Shown here piece by piece: positions 34,987 through 42,636 of a stretch of DNA of 56,697 nucleotides (position 1 is the first letter of the stretch; the number at the start of each line of letters is the position of its first letter). Under the pieces are notes generated by a model that was not told the origin of the DNA, ran no database searches, and saw only the letters and a program-made list of their open reading frames with translations. The position numbers were made by a program, and so were the translations under genes. Location: sequence record PZ513998.1. One strand, 5' to 3'. The stretch comes from a phage.

Positions 34987-36003
34987 ATGTTAAAACATCA
35001 AGACGGTTTCGACCACTACGCAGATATCGGCAAGAAAGGTTCCGTAGTCGAGCCGTACTTAAAAGCAGCCGGGTATGATATCCGAAATGCTACTGACGAT
35101 ACGTTCCAGATTGACCTAGGTCGTCGTGACGGCGCTAAGAGCCTTAAATTTACCGTAGAACGTAACTCCGCAACCAATGCGTCGCTATCATGGGGGTTCA
35201 CTCCGGCCGGAAACTACGCGTGTTTCGGTTTCGCGATGAAAGCCAATGGTTCTCGTATGCGAGTATGTCGGGTTGAGAACTTGGTCGACGTGGAGTGGGA
35301 TAGCGAAGACGGTAAGCTAGAAATTGATGGCCAAAAAGGGGTAAACCCGCTGATCCTTAATGCGTGGTATTTTTTCGAGATAGAACTTGATAAGTCCGCT
35401 AAGAAAGTAACCGTATGGGTTAATAACGAAAAGCAAATCGAGGCGACCCTTACTACTTCTTGGCCTGAAAAACTCGTTCTGGTATGGGGGCAAGTGGGTA
35501 CAGCGCCCAATGCGGGTATCCAGTACCTAGATGATTTTTACGCTATGGACGATTCGGGGTCGGTAAACACTTCCCGCCTAGGGCCGATTGAGGTTGCTAC
35601 CCGCGCTCCTACTTCTGATGTTACGACCGAATGGGAGATCGTTAACGGCACTAACGAAAATCACTACCAAGTTGCCTCCCAACTGGAGCCGGGGAGACCT
35701 AACGCACCGTATTTACAGTCTAACAAGTCGGGAGCTAAAGACATTTTCCGTTCTAATACGATCCTACCGACTAACAACAAGGTTTTCGGCGTGTCGGTGA
35801 TTGCGTATGCCCGTAAAGGGGACTTAGACGACCGCAAACTCGGTATGGTGATCCAGACTGACGGGGGTTCTGAGAAAGAAGTCCAAGTACCGTTGACCGA
35901 AGACTATAAATACTACCAAGTTACCCACGAACAAACTCCGGGTAATACCGACTGGAATAAAGGCGCTGTCGAAGCATTGCAGTTCGGCATCGTGACTCGA
36001 TAG
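34987..36003 (+). CDS. tail-associated protein, paralog 1 of 3
   Basis: 338 aa; shares motifs with the next two ORFs (GFD near N-terminus, WYFFEIEL, RLGPIEVATRAPTSDVTTEW, C-terminal FGIV). Confidence 0.4.
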   Translation: MLKHQDGFDHYADIGKKGSVVEPYLKAAGYDIRNATDDTFQIDLGRRDGAKSLKFTVERNSATNASLSWGFTPAGNYACFGFAMKANGSRMRVCRVENLVDVEWDSEDGKLEIDGQKGVNPLILNAWYFFEIELDKSAKKVTVWVNNEKQIEATLTTSWPEKLVLVWGQVGTAPNAGIQYLDDFYAMDDSGSVNTSRLGPIEVATRAPTSDVTTEWEIVNGTNENHYQVASQLEPGRPNAPYLQSNKSGAKDIFRSNTILPTNNKVFGVSVIAYARKGDLDDRKLGMVIQTDGGSEKEVQVPLTEDYKYYQVTHEQTPGNTDWNKGAVEALQFGIVTR

Positions 36004-36987
36004 ATGATGCAATTTATGGACGGTTTCGACCAGCTAAAAGATATGCCGTCGGATAAGATGGTAAATTTACTCAACAACTCGGGGTACAACGCAGTACCGC
36101 CGATCCGTATTGCGGAGGGACGTAATACAGAAACCCGATGCTTATACCTAGGTGATGTAAACGAGAACGCAGCAAGCCCGGCAACACTGTCTCGACTTTT
36201 TAACTCCGAGACTAACCGTGTGGTTATCGGTTTTGCGTATTGTGCGGACAAAGTGCGGGACGATATTATCCGTATTCCCGGTTTTGGGGTGCTCGCTTGG
36301 AACCGCGACAATGGTAAAGTCTCCTTGGCCGGTGTTACGGGTCAAGCTATCTTGCTCCTAGGTATCTGGTACTATTTCGAGATCGTCATCAACAAAGAAA
36401 CAAATACTTTCCAAGTTTTTATTAATAACGGTGCGGACTTAGCTGGACAACTACCGGATAGTGTTCGTTTCATGACAGACTACAAATGCGAATGGCCGGG
36501 CGGTTCTGGCGGTAAAAAATTAGATGATATCGTTTTTATCGATGCGCAAGCCGGCAAATACGTTGACCGAGTTGGCCCGATTGAAATACTCACCCGAATG
36601 CCGACGGTGGACGTGGTGAGCGAATGGTCGCCATCGAAAGGCGATAACCACTGGTCTCTTGTCAGTAATCGCCCTCCGAAAGAGGACGAATATATTCAGT
36701 CTAACGTCTCCGGCGCGATGGATACTTTCAAAAGTGAAATCCCGCTCGACGCTAAAGGCGACATCTTGGCCGTGAGTGTCACCGCGATCAACCGTAAATC
36801 TGACGTAGATAATAGACAACTCGGGTTGGTGGTTGGCGAGAAAGACAAACAGTTGGAAAAGGTAGATGAAAAACTTACCTTGACTGACAAAATAAGTTAT
36901 GCTGTATTCGAAAATTCTCCGCTCGGCGCTAATTGGGATCGCGATAATATCCCTGAAACTCCGTTCGGTGTAGTTATTAGACCATAA
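36004..36987 (+). CDS. tail-associated protein, paralog 2 of 3
   Basis: 327 aa; WYYFEIVINK, RVGPIEILTRMPTVDVVSEW, FGVV shared with neighbours. Confidence 0.4.
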   Translation: MMQFMDGFDQLKDMPSDKMVNLLNNSGYNAVPPIRIAEGRNTETRCLYLGDVNENAASPATLSRLFNSETNRVVIGFAYCADKVRDDIIRIPGFGVLAWNRDNGKVSLAGVTGQAILLLGIWYYFEIVINKETNTFQVFINNGADLAGQLPDSVRFMTDYKCEWPGGSGGKKLDDIVFIDAQAGKYVDRVGPIEILTRMPTVDVVSEWSPSKGDNHWSLVSNRPPKEDEYIQSNVSGAMDTFKSEIPLDAKGDILAVSVTAINRKSDVDNRQLGLVVGEKDKQLEKVDEKLTLTDKISYAVFENSPLGANWDRDNIPETPFGVVIRP

Positions 36988-37908
36988 ATGTTTTTCTTCG
37001 AGGGGTTCGAACAGTTCGCCTTCGATGGGGATTCCCCGGCTTTCATGCGTAGAGCCGGGTATACCGTTTCGGGGTCTTTCGGCTTCGGCGCAGGACGTAA
37101 GAACGGCGCAAGCGTCCTACTCGGCCGAGGTCGAATATCCCGAGATTTCCCATCTGATACCGGCAATTTTACCGTAGGTTTCGCGTTCAATATGACCACG
37201 AGAGGAAATCTCGTAGGCATCTCAGGCGGGGATAGTACGCTTAAAGTTGGTGTAGACCAGACCACAGGGTTATTACAGTCCGAGGGAGAGTCAGGTTACG
37301 TTATCCCATTGCGTAACAACTGGTACTATCTAGAAGTGGAAGTAAACAAAGACGCAAAGACGGCCGACGTCTATATCAATGGTAAAAAAGACATTACGGT
37401 TTCGATACCAGATGGCGTAGCGACGGCAGACACGCTCACAATAACATTGCGGGACTTCGACGAGTCGGATTTTGCGGACATTCGCTTCGATGACTTGTAT
37501 TATGCCGACACTACGAGAGTCGGGCCTATCACCGTCACTACTCGCGTTCCGACGAAAGACGTATCGAAAGATTGGGGTGTTTCCGGTGGGGAATCTCACC
37601 ATGAGGTCGTAGCTCCCGCACTACCGAACTTAGTTGACCGGTTCATCTATACGGGGACGAATGGTGCTACGGATTCTTTCACCTCGGAAACCGTGCTATC
37701 AGAGGAGACAGAAGTAAAAGGTGTTTCGGTGATAACACTCCTCCGAAAAGCCACCGTAGATCCAGTTAGCGTAGATGTGTTCACAAACGAGCTAGTTAAA
37801 AACGAAGCTACGTTACCTCGTGATTGGGAGTACCGCTACTCAGAACTTGGAGTGCTCCCGGAGCACGTAATACCGGACTCAACTTTCGGAATAACTCTAA
37901 AAGCGTAA
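36988..37908 (+). CDS. tail-associated protein, paralog 3 of 3
   Basis: 306 aa; WYYLEVEVNK, RVGPITVTTRVPTKDVSKDW, FGIT shared with neighbours. Confidence 0.4.
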   Translation: MFFFEGFEQFAFDGDSPAFMRRAGYTVSGSFGFGAGRKNGASVLLGRGRISRDFPSDTGNFTVGFAFNMTTRGNLVGISGGDSTLKVGVDQTTGLLQSEGESGYVIPLRNNWYYLEVEVNKDAKTADVYINGKKDITVSIPDGVATADTLTITLRDFDESDFADIRFDDLYYADTTRVGPITVTTRVPTKDVSKDWGVSGGESHHEVVAPALPNLVDRFIYTGTNGATDSFTSETVLSEETEVKGVSVITLLRKATVDPVSVDVFTNELVKNEATLPRDWEYRYSELGVLPEHVIPDSTFGITLKA

Positions 37909-38646
37909 ATGAAAATTGCCCCTAACATGGGGCTTTCCTATGGTTGGGTGAGAGGCGAGGATTTTTGGGGTGGCCCAATGAACGAGACGCTAACCACCTT
38001 AGATACTGTTACGTTTCTACGCCTACAATCTATCACGTTTAGTGCGCCACCGGCTGACGCTAAAAACGGCGACACCTATTTTATCTATAAAAACCCGACT
38101 GGCCCTTGGGTTGGCCAAGAAAGAAAACTGGCCGTATTGATCGACGGCGTGTGGCAATTCATCGAACCCAAACGAGGTTGGCGAGCATTCTTAGACCCGA
38201 CCAGTGAGTTTATCTGGTGGGACGGGGAGACGTGGCGTATTGAGAATACCGGAGTTGACCCGATCAACCCTAACCCATCTCCCGATGTTGTACCTATGGC
38301 GTTTGATGTATCCGCGACTATTTCGGAGAAGATGTATCCATCGGAAGTGCTCGTACACTTGCCAATTATCGACAATATGTACCTACCGGCTAACATGGCA
38401 CAATCTCAATTCGACGCCCGTAGTGCTTTTCTCGATAAAGCTAAGTTCACTGTGCAGAGAAATAACCAAACTGTCGGCACATTCACTGTCGATCGGGGGC
38501 AATATAACGCCACTTTCGTGACGTCTGGTAGCGTTGCCGTGAGATTTTTCAAAGGTGACAGGCTGACAATCTTAGCTCCGGTTGATACAATCGACTCAGC
38601 CGTTAACTTCGGCTTTATTATTAGATTAATGATTCAGGGGGCTTAA
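37909..38646 (+). CDS. hypothetical tail-associated protein
   Basis: 245-aa ORF between the paralog triplet and the J-like protein. Confidence 0.3.
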   Translation: MKIAPNMGLSYGWVRGEDFWGGPMNETLTTLDTVTFLRLQSITFSAPPADAKNGDTYFIYKNPTGPWVGQERKLAVLIDGVWQFIEPKRGWRAFLDPTSEFIWWDGETWRIENTGVDPINPNPSPDVVPMAFDVSATISEKMYPSEVLVHLPIIDNMYLPANMAQSQFDARSAFLDKAKFTVQRNNQTVGTFTVDRGQYNATFVTSGSVAVRFFKGDRLTILAPVDTIDSAVNFGFIIRLMIQGA

Positions 38647-41600
38647 ATGGGGCTACACATGGGGATCGGCCGTGGCCCTATTGATGAATTGATGGAAATC
38701 GAGGTCGGCGGAAGAACCGCTTGGCGTGGTTCCGTTAAAGAGTCCTCGTTCTTTCGGATACGGGCTGAAAATCTTTTCGGGGGTAAGAAAGCGGAGGGAG
38801 GCATTGAGGGTGGTTTCGAACTCTACATGGGCGATAAGGATCAGGTCGTTAGCGACAAACTTAAATCCATGTTGGGCGGTGGGAGCCAACCGGAGTTTCG
38901 CGGAGTAGCTACCGGCTATTTCGATGGTTTAGTGTCGGCCATGAACCCATACCCGAAAGCGTGGCGATTTAAAATACGTCGCATCTTAAAAGGTTGGGAC
39001 GGTGGGGTGTGGTATCCGGAAAAAGCGGTCATAGAACTTACCGGCCACGATGACGAGGGGAAAGAGTATCCCATCAAGGCGATGAACCCGGCTCACGTTA
39101 TTTACGAGTGTATGACAAACCGAGATTGGGGCCGAGGTATCTCTCGTGACCTACTGTTTGACTCGGAGTTCCGAAAGGTGGCCGATACGTTGTTCGAGGA
39201 GGGGTTCGGGATCTGTATTGCGTGGAGACGCCAAGACACCCTAGAGTCTTTTATCCAGAATATACTTAACCACATTTCAGGCGTGTTATACGTCGATAAG
39301 TTTACCGGTACTTTCAAACTCAAGTTACTTCGTAATGACTACGATGCGGATAACTTGCCGGTGTACGGTTTTGAGAGCGGGTTACTACAAATCGAGGAAG
39401 CGACTAACGGCGCAATCCATGGTCTGATGAATGAGTGTGTCGTTAAATGGTTCAACCCGATCGTCGGTAAAGAGAGTCAAGTTCGAGCACAGAACCTAGC
39501 CCTGATTCAGACTTCCGGCGCCATCAAAAGCGACACATTCACGTATGAGGGGGTGCCAACCGCAAAACTGGCCACTATCATAGCAGAAAGAGACTTACGT
39601 GTTGCGTCTACTAACGTCCGCCGGTTCACCCTAGTTTGTGACCGTCGAGCATGGCGAGTACAACCGGGAGACGTTTTGAAGATTTCCGACCCAAAGACAC
39701 GCGGACTTGAGAGCGTAATCGTTCGTGTAGCGGACACAGAGGAGAGTAAACAATCCGATGGTCAGATACGATTATCTTGCGTACAAGACACGTTCTCGTT
39801 CGACCTGAACACGTTTACTGGTGTTCAAGACCCGTCTTTCCCTAAACCGAACCTAAACCCGGTTCCGGCCAGACGTTTAGTTTATGAGGCGACATACGCA
39901 GAATTGTCGTCCCTATTCCCACTAGGAGAGTTTGAGGCCATCAAGCCGTCTTTCGGGTATTTGCGGGCACAGGCGGAAAAAGGCTCACCGGTAACGATGG
40001 CGTTCGAGATGCACGTCCAAAACCCGACCACTGGAAAGTATGAGAAAACAGGTGCGGGGGATTTCACTGCGCTATTCGAATTACCGGTTGACCTTGGATA
40101 TTTAGACCGCTATATCCGAATGAAAGATCCGGTAGATGAAGACTTGATTGAAGTCGGGGACGTTTTTTACGTCAACCAAGAAATAATCATGATCCAGTCT
40201 ATCGAGGAAGACGGGTTAGTCGAAATACGTCGAGGCGTGTACGACACCGTACCTCACCAACACCCCGCTGGCTCCGTAGTGTGGGATATGGTTCAAGGTG
40301 GCGGGCTTGACCTGACAACCCGACAAGCGGGAGAAACCTTATCGGTGAAGATACTCCCATGGACGCTATCGGGTGGGGTTCTCGACGAGTCTAACGTGTC
40401 CGAAGATGAACTGACTTTCAATTACCGATTCTACCGCCCATACGCTCCGGGTAAAGTAGAACTCACCTCAGTGGAAAGCACGGAACCGAACCCTTGGTTT
40501 AATGGCCATGTTTTACGAGCGGACGTCGGAGAGGCCGAAGTGCCTGACGCCTTGACGATAACGTGGGCGCACCGAGATAGACCGATGCAACAAGACAAGC
40601 CTATTTATCATGAGCAAGATAGTATCGGGCCGGAGCCGGGAACGACATACCGAATTAGTATCCTAAACGCTAAGGGTGAAGTAATCCGCAGAGAAAACGG
40701 GATTACCGGCACACAGTTTGTCTACACTTACGGCCAAGCGAGCCTAGATTTGAACGTGGAAGCGTCAGCCATAGATCCGGTTGCTGGGTACTTGAGATTA
40801 GAGTCTATGCGCGACGGGTTCGAATCGTGGCAAAACTACTTAATACCGATCACCGTTTTCAAGAAACCGCCTCAAATGGCGTATGTTAGTTTCTTAAACC
40901 AATCTGTCGCTCAGGTGTCCGATAAAATCGACCCCGAAGATAAAGACGGAGAGACGGCCGTAGACGCAAAAGCCATGGTTAGTTTTGTCAACCAATCCGT
41001 AGCACAGGAGAGCGAAGATCTATCTTCCGGTGGCGGGGGCCTACCTGATGGCGTGAATGTTAGCTATGTGCGACAACCGGTTTCGCAACAAGGCAAATTA
41101 GTTCCTATCGTAGATAGCCAACTGTTTGAGTTCCCTTACTTAATGTTGCTACGCCATGGGTTCGAACCGTCCGCCTCACAATTCTTCGCTACGGTAGCTA
41201 GACCGTCAGACCGTGTAACCGACGGGTACGATTTGTTCGAGAAAGAGAAGAACGATACAGAGTACGTGAACCAAGGGGCGCAACCGTGGACGCCGTGGGG
41301 GATTCTGTCTAAGGCAATCTCATATCTGGATAATGAGATAATCCTCGATGCTACGTCGGATTCTGACGGGGTTCCTACTGAGGACGCGATGCCGGGCGAC
41401 GTGATTTTCGTCGGAGCCGAAGCGATGGTGATCCGGGGCATCGATGGTAAACGTATTACGGTTGGCCGTGGTTGTGTTGATACAATCCCCGCACTTCATG
41501 GGAAAGGTCAAGTTGTGTGGTTTGTCGACAAACAAATAGCTTCCGGGCAACGTAAATATCACGACGGCCAGACTTGCGTAGTTGCCGTAAGGCCTCATTC

Positions 41601-42426
41601 TCTCGCAGCAGAAATCCAGCCTAAAGACGTGGTAAACAAACAACTGGAAGTGAAACTACGCGCGGATAGACCATATCCACCGGGGTTCTTGCTCGGCAAC
41701 GGTGAGCACTTTTTCAAAGGGTGGGACGCACTGGCCGATAACTTTGACTACTATGACCCGCAAGGCAAAGACTTAGTGATGACGTGGGCGCACCGTAACC
41801 GAGTTCGTCAAGGGGAAACCGTGTTAGACCATCTTGATGTGGGACAACAACGGCCAAGCGACGTAATGTATCGAGTGTGGATCGGGAAACGATATACTCC
41901 TAGATACAGCAATCGCACAGTTACTATCACCATGGGGACGTATTATACTCGCGACGCAGGAATGACGATCAAGGCCGAAGACTTACACGCGTTCGGCAGA
42001 CGAGTAGGGATCTTGACGGAATCCACCGGCTACGTCTATGTTTCGATCACGGTATCCGCTGTCGATGAAAACGAGCTTAGTAGCTGGCAAGGATATAATA
42101 CTCAGTGTAAAGTACCCTCAATTCCGGCCAAGCGAGATGTTGACCCCAATCCGGGAAGACCTGACCCGGGAACTGGCGGTGGCGAAACTGGCGGTGGCGG
42201 AACTGGCGGTGGTACGAACCCCGGCAATCCAGATCCGGGTCAGCCTGATAGACCGAACCCCGACCCCGACCCGGGCAACCCTGATCCAGAACCTAATCCG
42301 GGCAACCCTGACCCTGATCCGGTCGAGCCTCCGCCACCGTTGGTTGTTGCCGGTTGGTCAAACAAGTGGGATCATGATTGGGCGGAACGACTACCAGACC
42401 AAGACGTCAAAGAGGATACTGAATAA
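38647..42426 (+). CDS. host specificity / central tail fibre protein (lambda gpJ-like)
   Basis: 1259 aa; N-terminus MGLHMGIGRGPIDEL resembles the start of J-like tip proteins; size and position relative to tape measure fit; Pro/Gly/Asp-rich repeat tail at C-terminus. Confidence 0.55.
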   Translation: MGLHMGIGRGPIDELMEIEVGGRTAWRGSVKESSFFRIRAENLFGGKKAEGGIEGGFELYMGDKDQVVSDKLKSMLGGGSQPEFRGVATGYFDGLVSAMNPYPKAWRFKIRRILKGWDGGVWYPEKAVIELTGHDDEGKEYPIKAMNPAHVIYECMTNRDWGRGISRDLLFDSEFRKVADTLFEEGFGICIAWRRQDTLESFIQNILNHISGVLYVDKFTGTFKLKLLRNDYDADNLPVYGFESGLLQIEEATNGAIHGLMNECVVKWFNPIVGKESQVRAQNLALIQTSGAIKSDTFTYEGVPTAKLATIIAERDLRVASTNVRRFTLVCDRRAWRVQPGDVLKISDPKTRGLESVIVRVADTEESKQSDGQIRLSCVQDTFSFDLNTFTGVQDPSFPKPNLNPVPARRLVYEATYAELSSLFPLGEFEAIKPSFGYLRAQAEKGSPVTMAFEMHVQNPTTGKYEKTGAGDFTALFELPVDLGYLDRYIRMKDPVDEDLIEVGDVFYVNQEIIMIQSIEEDGLVEIRRGVYDTVPHQHPAGSVVWDMVQGGGLDLTTRQAGETLSVKILPWTLSGGVLDESNVSEDELTFNYRFYRPYAPGKVELTSVESTEPNPWFNGHVLRADVGEAEVPDALTITWAHRDRPMQQDKPIYHEQDSIGPEPGTTYRISILNAKGEVIRRENGITGTQFVYTYGQASLDLNVEASAIDPVAGYLRLESMRDGFESWQNYLIPITVFKKPPQMAYVSFLNQSVAQVSDKIDPEDKDGETAVDAKAMVSFVNQSVAQESEDLSSGGGGLPDGVNVSYVRQPVSQQGKLVPIVDSQLFEFPYLMLLRHGFEPSASQFFATVARPSDRVTDGYDLFEKEKNDTEYVNQGAQPWTPWGILSKAISYLDNEIILDATSDSDGVPTEDAMPGDVIFVGAEAMVIRGIDGKRITVGRGCVDTIPALHGKGQVVWFVDKQIASGQRKYHDGQTCVVAVRPHSLAAEIQPKDVVNKQLEVKLRADRPYPPGFLLGNGEHFFKGWDALADNFDYYDPQGKDLVMTWAHRNRVRQGETVLDHLDVGQQRPSDVMYRVWIGKRYTPRYSNRTVTITMGTYYTRDAGMTIKAEDLHAFGRRVGILTESTGYVYVSITVSAVDENELSSWQGYNTQCKVPSIPAKRDVDPNPGRPDPGTGGGETGGGGTGGGTNPGNPDPGQPDRPNPDPDPGNPDPEPNPGNPDPDPVEPPPPLVVAGWSNKWDHDWAERLPDQDVKEDTE

Positions 42427-42636
42427 ATGGAAAAAAGAATTTACATCAAACATGTTCGTCAAGCCGGATATTGTGCTAACGGCGTAGGCCGGGTATTAGA
42501 GCGGATCGGTGTTGACGAAAGAGACTTTTTACAGAACGGGTTGCTGATCACCCCGCAACTGGCTAACAACACAAACCCGATGATACGACGTGTGGTAGAA
42601 ATCGCACTCGCTGATAGTGAGGTAAAACGTGGGTAA
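42427..42636 (+). CDS. hypothetical protein
   Basis: 69-aa ORF. Confidence 0.25.
   Translation: MEKRIYIKHVRQAGYCANGVGRVLERIGVDERDFLQNGLLITPQLANNTNPMIRRVVEIALADSEVKRG

Follow-up and report, generated by a model that had tools for sequence, protein, structure and literature searches.

In Pseudomonas phage JBD30, gp53, the hub protein of the baseplate, docks with its C-terminus in the centre of the α-helical bundle of a gp54 trimer (PMC11445458; Valentova et al. 2024; PDB 8RK3). Three such receptor-binding trimers are held per hub trimer and gp54, a DUF2793 protein, is encoded directly downstream of gp53. The JBD30 hub harbours neither a duplicated second module nor a low-complexity linker, and its C-terminal peptide, which is of the GLGFRLGEELGG type, follows straight after the last domain, leading to a rigid tripod. 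In roseophage R4C, three claw-like trimers of a rod-knob-foot fibre of 230 residues bind the megatron protein at its C-terminal fibre-binding domain (PMC10276861; PDB 8GTC), which is a folded domain of 317 residues and not a tethered peptide. The closest characterised relative of the protein studied here is located at the tail tip of phage Chi (PDB 8VJH chain A, 'Minor tail protein', 1296 residues) and is named baseplate hub 2 protein (BH2P) in later papers. As 769 of its 1296 residues are modelled, the segment studied here is without experimental structure in any homologue, and a later paper (PMC12264135) describes the C-terminal region of the Chi protein as too flexible to analyse. Here we analyse a segment rich in Pro, Gly, Asp and Asn close to the C-terminus of the homologous hub protein encoded in a stretch of phage DNA of 56,697 nucleotides (sequence record PZ513998.1; 'the window' hereafter denotes this entire stretch). 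The segment is a real, conserved and functional feature, namely a disordered acidic tether and no variable switch. As the best overall explanation, to which we assign a probability of roughly 60%, this tether holds a helix which anchors a DUF2793 receptor-binding protein.

The hub protein of the window is 100% identical to QGF21942.1 of Escherichia phage E21 (tblastn; MN604053; Casjensviridae, Lavrentievavirus), and 28 records, mostly of Proteus phages, show at least 95% identity to it. Its residues 1-1251 align with residues 16-1284 of the Chi protein (phmmer against the PDB, 8vjh_A, E=0), a full-length homologue with 42-44% identity which is also the top Foldseek match of the AlphaFold2 model of the hub (E=7e-69). 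Residues 3-735 match gp53 of JBD30 (PDB search, 8rk3_o, E=1.6e-116; Foldseek, 8rk3_b, E=7e-53), while further Foldseek matches of the model comprise lambda J, T5 pb3 and the hubs of T1 and DT57C. The Pfam family PF13550 (Phage-tail_3) is found at residues 196-362 with 30.6 bits, above the gathering cut-off of 23, and phrog_6284 ('tail protein') of the PHROGs database spans residues 1-1259. An earlier note on this DNA, made from the sequence alone, had addressed the protein as a J-like host-specificity protein. This is fair as a label of fold and family in view of PF13550 and the Foldseek match to lambda J; the closest characterised homologue, however, is rather hub 2 of Chi, and the precise family is Chi-type hub 2. 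With lambda gpJ the N-terminal hub/cone fold (Foldseek 8iyk_F, E=1.4e-16, and 8k35_A) and PF13550 are held in common at about 10% identity. The C-terminus of lambda J is formed by a folded receptor-binding domain and not by a low-complexity linker followed by a short helix. The similarity of the hub to the RcGTA/R4C megatron is remote (Foldseek 6tba_8A, 196 aligned columns). Within the hub, BLASTP reveals an internal duplication of residues 449-655 as residues 857-1062 (28% identity, E=3e-15; 39991-40611 and 41215-41832 in the DNA), both copies containing the motifs RG..DT(V/I)P..H, RPY(A/P)PG, TWAHR(D/N)R and SWQ(N/G)Y. Because of this duplication, the long Chi-type hub can be regarded as a JBD30-type hub to which a duplicated module, a linker and an anchor have been added. 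The gene and the elements of its 3' part are located as follows (confidence of the model is given as predicted local distance difference test, pLDDT; repeats were detected by Tandem Repeats Finder, TRF):

38647-42426, plus strand: hub gene, encoding the tail-tip baseplate hub 2 or J-like protein of 1259 residues (PF13550, phrog_6284, identity to E21).
41824-42126, plus strand: last β-sandwich domain before the linker, about residues 1060-1160 (TWAHRNR...SSWQGY; AlphaFold2 pLDDT about 86-93, β strands).
42133-42213, plus strand: Gly block, the flexible half of the linker, residues 1163-1189, TGGGETGGGGTGGGT (pLDDT <50).
42171-42212, plus strand: 15-nt tandem repeat in 2.8 copies, AACTGGCGGTGGCGA, encoding (T/E)GGGx units (TRF).
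42214-42339, plus strand: acidic X-Pro block, residues 1190-1231, TNPGNPDPGQPDRPNPDPDPGNPDPEPNPGNPDPDPVEPPPP, with 16 X-Pro dipeptides, counted over 43 residues (pLDDT <50).
42257-42272, plus strand: 6-nt repeat in 2.7 copies (ACCCCG) within the X-Pro block (TRF).
42352-42396, plus strand: C-terminal motif GWSNKWDHDWAERLP, residues 1236-1250, predicted amphipathic helix with a Trp stripe and proposed anchor peptide (alignment, AlphaFold2).
42397-42426, plus strand: short, acidic and variable C-terminal tail DQDVKEDTE and stop codon (in the family, top-residue frequency 0.20 and gaps 44%).

The biased segment comprises 69 residues (1163-1231, corresponding to 42133-42339). Over residues 1163-1228, Pro (30%), Gly (24%), Asp (15%) and Asn (11%) add up to 80% compared to 25% elsewhere in the protein. 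Calculated over stretches of 40 residues, the entropy of the hub protein reaches its minimum of 2.27 bits in the stretch starting at residue 1192, which is about five standard deviations (sd) below the mean (3.73, sd 0.28). The G+C content amounts to 64.6% within the segment versus 51% for the hub gene. Two sub-blocks can be distinguished, the Gly block, whose end reads ...PDPGTGGGETGGGGTGGG / ...TGGGETGGGGTGGG, and the X-Pro block, which probably serves as an extended spacer with a high polyproline-II content. The earlier note had correctly recognised a low-complexity stretch rich in Pro, Gly and Asp, and the C-terminal part of the open reading frame 38647-42426 reads exactly as quoted there. 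The segment does not make up the very C-terminus, being followed by 28 ordinary, non-repetitive residues (LVVAGWSNKWDHDWAERLPDQDVKEDTE). The near-repetitive character ascribed to the DNA is present in a weak form, comprising the 15-nt and 6-nt repeats listed above and, from a repeat search of the segment, an 18-nt repeat family of four copies with 72-78% identity; neither TRF nor the repeat search detected a long perfect tandem array in the segment. A collagen-like repeat was considered and discarded, since reading the sequence reveals irregular Gly spacing in both blocks and no (G-X-Y)n periodicity. A sequencing or assembly artefact as the origin of the segment was likewise dismissed, as it is present in the 28 records with at least 95% identity and in all distant homologues.

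The AlphaFold2 monomer model, calculated for residues 61-1259 from an alignment of 66 sequences, has a mean pLDDT of 79.5. Residues 1169-1238 are predicted with pLDDT values below 50 and without secondary structure, whereas a helix is predicted at residues 1237-1248 (mean pLDDT about 71 over residues 1241-1250). One face of this helix is formed by Trp1237, Trp1241 and Trp1245 together with Leu1249, i.e. by positions i, i+4, i+8 and i+12. Both the disorder prediction and the similar length, composition and negative charge which the segment retains between conserved elements in every full-length homologue (see below) bear out the suggestion of the earlier note that it might be a flexible linker, and we consider it very likely that it is a flexible, disordered one. 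X-Pro and Pro-rich spacers between modules are well known from other proteins, such as (Glu-Pro)n(Lys-Pro)n of TonB or the Pro/Thr-rich linkers of cellulases, and are expected to act as extended tethers. These spacers are not homologous to the segment, in which X is Asp, Asn or Glu, so that it is uniformly acidic; unlike them, it has a Gly hinge ahead of the X-Pro block and belongs to a virion protein.

For comparison with close relatives, the 3' kilobase of the hub gene was aligned for 16 further Lavrentievavirus records and E21, leaving aside the Q29 locus. In E21 the biased segment is 100% identical to that of the window. Among the close relatives the Gly block is the part which varies, by substitutions and by a one-codon insertion or deletion (GGGGT versus GGGGSDG), the variants being GGGGTGGG, GGGETGGG, GGGGSDGGG (one additional residue), GGGGSDGG and GGGGSDGGGSDGGG. 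In the X-Pro block, all in-frame sequences encode the same residues apart from a fifth Pro in the PPPP run of PLY284 and a single E>D exchange in RP6. As indels of one codon occur within the Gly block and the Pro run, length and sequence are not strictly the same in all close relatives; the variation is minimal and in frame with the exception of two records of doubtful quality. Nonsynonymous (pN) and synonymous (pS) diversity were calculated from 15 in-frame sequences, i.e. the window and 14 relatives. Despite many synonymous changes in the X-Pro block (pS 0.23), its pN is as low as 0.0014, resulting in a pN/pS of 0.006. The corresponding ratio is 0.12 for the Gly block and 0.04 for the folded part upstream. 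As judged from these sequences, purifying selection on the X-Pro block is very strong in this genus.

These data bear directly on the other idea of the earlier note, according to which the segment may be a contingency locus that expands and contracts. In such a locus, slippage within near-repetitive DNA would alter length or frame and thereby vary or switch off the C-terminus of the hub. Short tandem repeats do exist (15 nt in 2.8 copies, 6 nt in 2.7 copies), one-codon indels occur in the Gly block and, in PLY284, in the Pro run, and two public records, PV786929 (pPM01) and OR506460 (AS-M1_NWU), carry frameshifts of +1 and +4 nt exactly in the Gly block at a position equivalent to about 42195-42205 of the window, which truncate the hub before the X-Pro block and the terminal motif. 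The tracts, however, are much too short and imperfect for slippage at a high rate, and the copy number of neither the 15-nt nor the 6-nt unit changes among 18 closely related genomes. Equally hard to reconcile with a switch are the pN/pS of 0.006 at a pS of 0.23 in the X-Pro block, the constrained length of the linker in homologues down to 35% identity, with an interquartile range of 86.5-95 residues, and the fact that a frameshift would remove the most conserved motif of the hub. One of the two frameshifted records is flagged UNVERIFIED while the other is labelled Enterococcus phage, yet is 99.7% identical to Proteus phages, and split tail genes are seen in other records of the group, too (P16-2532). 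The frameshifts in these two records are probably sequencing errors. We therefore regard a contingency locus as very improbable and abandon this part of the earlier note, which removes a false lead, the region being no phase-variable switch.

As a separate observation, synonymous diversity among Lavrentievavirus is about twofold higher at 42133-42342 (pS 0.22) than in the preceding 240 codons (41400-42132, pS 0.10), and the Gly-block variants are mosaic in that RP6 joins one Gly-block haplotype with the other haplotype just downstream. The raised pS and the mosaic variants suggest recombination or a locally elevated mutation rate.

The substitution pattern also bears on whether the region might conceal an overlapping gene in the +1 frame at 42038-42487 or a recoding site which fuses the hub to the downstream fibre protein. 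The +1 frame is indeed open over 149 codons in the window and over 136-146 codons in all relatives. Nearly all substitutions, however, affect third codon positions of the hub, which are second positions of the +1 frame and change its amino acids, indicating that the latter is not under purifying selection, and its openness is to be expected from a codon composition of GGN, CCN, GAY and AAY. This pattern rules out the +1-frame open reading frame 42038-42487 as a gene. A fusion of hub and DUF2793 protein by -1 frameshifting is ruled out by the many stop codons present across the region in this frame, which is the one that the DUF2793 gene occupies in natural genomes. We attach practically no weight to either variant of this explanation.

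The strong conservation of the X-Pro block raises the further question of whether the Gly/X-Pro segment is ordered in the virion, as a trimeric polyproline-II or polyglycine-II bundle forming part of a tail fibre. A pN/pS of 0.006 and Pro columns which are alignable throughout the family are unusual for a linker, homologues of the hub are trimeric (PMC11945409), and one paper identifies the Chi BH2P homologue as that fibre protein of phage YSD1 which was labelled with immunogold. These points have to be weighed against the missing Gly-X-Y periodicity, pLDDT values below 50, although a monomer prediction is blind to trimeric bundles, a Gly block which tolerates indels and consists of 33% gaps across the family, and a length of at most about 20 nm which some 70 residues can provide. 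On balance, an ordered bundle appears improbable to us compared to a disordered tether.

To view the segment in the context of the wider family, 5.8 billion proteins were searched, which yielded 473 homologues, 65 full-length ones of which (35-99% identity) were examined. All 65 exhibit the same layout consisting of the β-sandwich domain, an acidic linker in which Gly precedes X-Pro, and the terminal motif. Across these homologues the last β-sandwich domain ends in ...NWQGY...PS(Y/F)P, with Trp1147, Gly1149 and Tyr1150 conserved to at least 90% in the alignment of 66 sequences. The distance from WQGY to the motif ranges from 81 to 120 residues with a median of 89 (interquartile range 86.5-95), while the linker carries a net charge between -5 and -26 and about 22 X-Pro dipeptides. 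This narrow length distribution argues that the reach of the linker matters. The Gly block contains 33% gaps across the family, and the Pro columns of the X-Pro block are conserved and can be aligned. The linker is followed by the family motif GWSxxWDHGWAxxLPxQ. Within the 66 sequences, Trp1237 and Trp1245 are invariant and Asp1242, His1243, Ala1246 and Pro1250 are conserved to at least 90%; with a mean top-residue frequency of 0.67 over 17 columns, compared to 0.62 in the N-terminal hub, the motif constitutes the most conserved piece of the protein. Chi BH2P likewise possesses a Gly/Pro linker and the motif GWSLSWDHGWA; its linker is longer (94 versus 85 residues between the anchoring positions), as is the acidic tail following the motif. 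Short-form hubs of about 720-800 residues, which are devoid of the duplicated module and of the linker, end in a related aromatic-Gly motif right after the WQxY domain (AGWGADYGNQWGN, GYGWNYGNNYGS or GYGWNYGNNYG). From the alignments, the low-complexity segment is a conserved, length-constrained spacer serving a conserved terminal element. This terminal motif, which had been overlooked in the earlier note, gives the linker its purpose.

A candidate partner of the motif is suggested by gene order. The gene in question is located in the window as follows:

37909-38646, plus strand: DUF2793 'tail fibre' or receptor-binding protein gene, proposed anchor partner (PF10983, E=3e-23; phrog_7049, tail fiber).

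In the natural genome of E21, a DUF2793 gene of 247 residues lies directly downstream of the hub gene, the stop and start codons overlapping by one base. In E21 and its relatives the natural order is tape measure, distal tail protein, BR0599 hub 1, two small genes, hub 2 and DUF2793. A DUF2793-type gene comes right after the hub gene in 11 of 11 natural loci (E21 and ten others, comprising long forms down to 34% identity as well as short JBD30-like forms) and also in about 16 close relatives. A near-identical Chi-like contig exhibits the same gene neighbourhood from the tape measure to DUF2793, and the direct succession of hub and DUF2793 gene corresponds to that in JBD30.

The window itself deviates from this order. 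Compared by blastn with E21 and about 16 relatives (shown for 29803-51606), all genes show about 100% identity and lie on the plus strand, but their order is reversed, reading fibres, DUF2793, hub 2, 69 residues, 78 residues, hub 1, distal tail protein and tape measure. Most of the short intergenic spacers are gone, with open reading frames abutting exactly (36003/36004, 38646/38647, 42426/42427). The window is colinear with no natural genome and its gene order is artificial; it looks as though, in the GenBank record, each minus-strand coding sequence had been inverted at its own position. Because of this reversal, the open reading frame of 69 residues at 42427 is the natural upstream neighbour of the hub, and the DUF2793 partner is displaced to the upstream side. 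The biased segment, being 100% identical to that of E21, is unaffected by the rearrangement.

The DUF2793 protein of the window (245 residues) is similar in size to the R4C fibre. Compared singly with the PDB by phmmer it produces a marginal match (E=0.02), whereas a profile of six DUF2793 sequences matches the R4C fibre 8gtc_S with E=8e-8 and, weakly, gp54 of JBD30 (8rk3_a, 0.019). The latter alignment starts from residue 1, and the molecule name given by the PDB depositors identifies gp54 as DUF2793. Hub ends of the type GWxxx[WY]xxxW pair with receptor-binding proteins whose N-termini read PNxGLxxGWxxGExxWGGPMN, while JBD30-type ends (GLGFxLGxxLGG) pair with N-termini of the type GPNxGxLI..G..HY. 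Residues 1-27 of the DUF2793 protein (37909-37990; APNxGLxYGWxxGEDFWGGPMN) are strikingly conserved among proteins with 23-50% overall identity, which makes this N-terminus a candidate counterpart of the Trp motif of the hub. In one metagenomic locus (L022) the DUF2793 gene has been called 26 codons short and is missing the conserved N-terminus.

The C-terminal helix is read as an anchor because the C-terminus of the JBD30 hub docks in a DUF2793 trimer and because a DUF2793 gene follows the hub gene. From this analogy and from synteny we infer that the helix docks in the DUF2793 trimer and that the linker serves as a leash; that the Trp helix anchors the receptor-binding protein appears to us slightly better than an even chance. 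Homologues of hub 2 are trimeric (PMC11945409), and a trimeric tail-tip cone is known from cryo-electron microscopy (cryo-EM) for Chi, JBD30 and T1. At the tail tip of a Casjensviridae siphophage the hub 2 trimer would thus present three leashes, one per subunit. The Gly block would form a short, free hinge on leaving the last β-sandwich domain. The subsequent X-Pro block of about 42 residues would, at about 3.1 Å per residue in polyproline-II conformation, span some 13 nm, with the stiffness of proline and charge repulsion keeping the acidic chain extended. The Trp helix would be inserted as a plug in the trimeric bundle at the N-terminus of the DUF2793 protein whose gene is next downstream in nature, such that each hub subunit would hold one receptor-binding trimer flexibly instead of rigidly docked. 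A tether of about 70 residues would allow this trimer to explore about 15-20 nm around the tip. Unlike in JBD30, the anchor is based on Trp and separated from the last domain by about 70 disordered residues. A broader formulation, in which Chi-like and Lavrentievavirus phages carry their DUF2793 trimers on leashes composed of duplicated module, tether and Trp plug in place of the rigid tripod of JBD30, is offered tentatively, as we rate its chances somewhat short of even.

Several points weigh against this proposal. The docking of the Trp helix is derived from analogy plus synteny, and the helix itself is predicted with moderate confidence (pLDDT about 71). In JBD30 the receptor-binding protein also touches domain VII of the hub directly; a leash of 70 residues would abolish such a rigid contact, which would be unusual for receptor-binding proteins. 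The pairing of hub ends with N-termini of the receptor-binding protein is suggestive and not conclusive, since the two or three lineages involved are phylogenetic groups. Within the genus, the X-Pro block is conserved more strictly than would be expected of a purely entropic linker, and it may itself be a binding or structural element. Finally, there is a second candidate docking region at a position equivalent to the C-terminus of JBD30 gp53. Residues 743-816 (40873-41094) form a further disordered stretch (pLDDT <50) which separates the two folded halves of the hub, exactly where the short JBD30-type hubs end. A peptide occurs three times in this stretch (AYVSFLNQSVAQ, AMVSFVNQSVAQ and VNVSYVRQPVSQ). 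Two of the copies are predicted to be helical, and the pattern VAxxxxQ is retained throughout the family. The repeats could be further docking peptides.

The helix might, on the other hand, address a different target by acting on the membrane or the lipopolysaccharide of the host, by folding back on the hub, or by binding another fibre protein such as one of the paralogues of 306-338 residues. Amphipathic helices with Trp at i, i+4 and i+8 are typical of membrane-interface peptides, and precisely this spacing is predicted here. An acidic, extended tether would hold such a helix off the body of the virion, and several other conserved tail genes are located downstream. Yet in JBD30, which alone among the homologous systems has its hub C-terminus resolved, it is the DUF2793 trimer which is bound there, and DUF2793 is the invariant immediate downstream neighbour of the hub. 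In addition, the hub end and the N-terminus of the receptor-binding protein switch class together, and the conserved Asp, His and Pro of the motif suggest a specific protein-protein recognition over a generic affinity to membranes. We consider these alternatives taken together to be unlikely, although they retain more weight than any other competing explanation, and favour the anchoring of the DUF2793 protein.

If the proposal of a tethered DUF2793 trimer is true, it would explain why the C-terminal half of Chi BH2P and whatever is attached to it are invisible in cryo-EM, and it would provide a portable module of tether and plug for swapping or engineering receptor-binding proteins within the family. 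Its confirmation would reveal by what means flagellotropic Chi-like phages attach their distal adsorption apparatus, turn Trp1237, Trp1241, Trp1245, Asp1242 and His1243 into defined residues for mutagenesis, and establish a natural exchange junction for the receptor-binding proteins of therapeutic Proteus, Salmonella and E. coli phages. The feature as such is already public, E21 being in GenBank and the family having a partial cryo-EM structure, and as a linker it is of an ordinary type; when the literature was searched for Lavrentievavirus and YSD1_29, nothing specific on this segment was retrieved. New are the conserved Trp-helix 'plug' and the testable proposal of a leashed DUF2793 receptor-binding protein.

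We would like to add some observations on neighbouring genes and records. Three adjacent paralogous genes encoding 338, 327 and 306 residues occupy 34987-37908 and follow DUF2793 in natural genomes. This trio is kept in distant relatives, and one of its members shows a weak Laminin_G_3/ConA-like match. In the record of Proteus phage Q29 (OM962992, 2220-17043) the tail genes are, as seen by blastn, reversed on one strand with a few genes inverted relative to their neighbours, a layout which is probably an assembly or annotation artefact. The ATG at 38647, with which the hub gene begins both in the window and in the annotation of E21, is unlikely to be the true start. A GTG located 42 nt upstream in the natural genome gives V/M-GKFKKATAGYSYY-MGLHMG, the 14 codons concerned being absent from the copy in the window. 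This GTG start fits the family consensus MGKxKK..GY.YYMGLHMG as well as the annotation of relatives with 1273-1274 residues.

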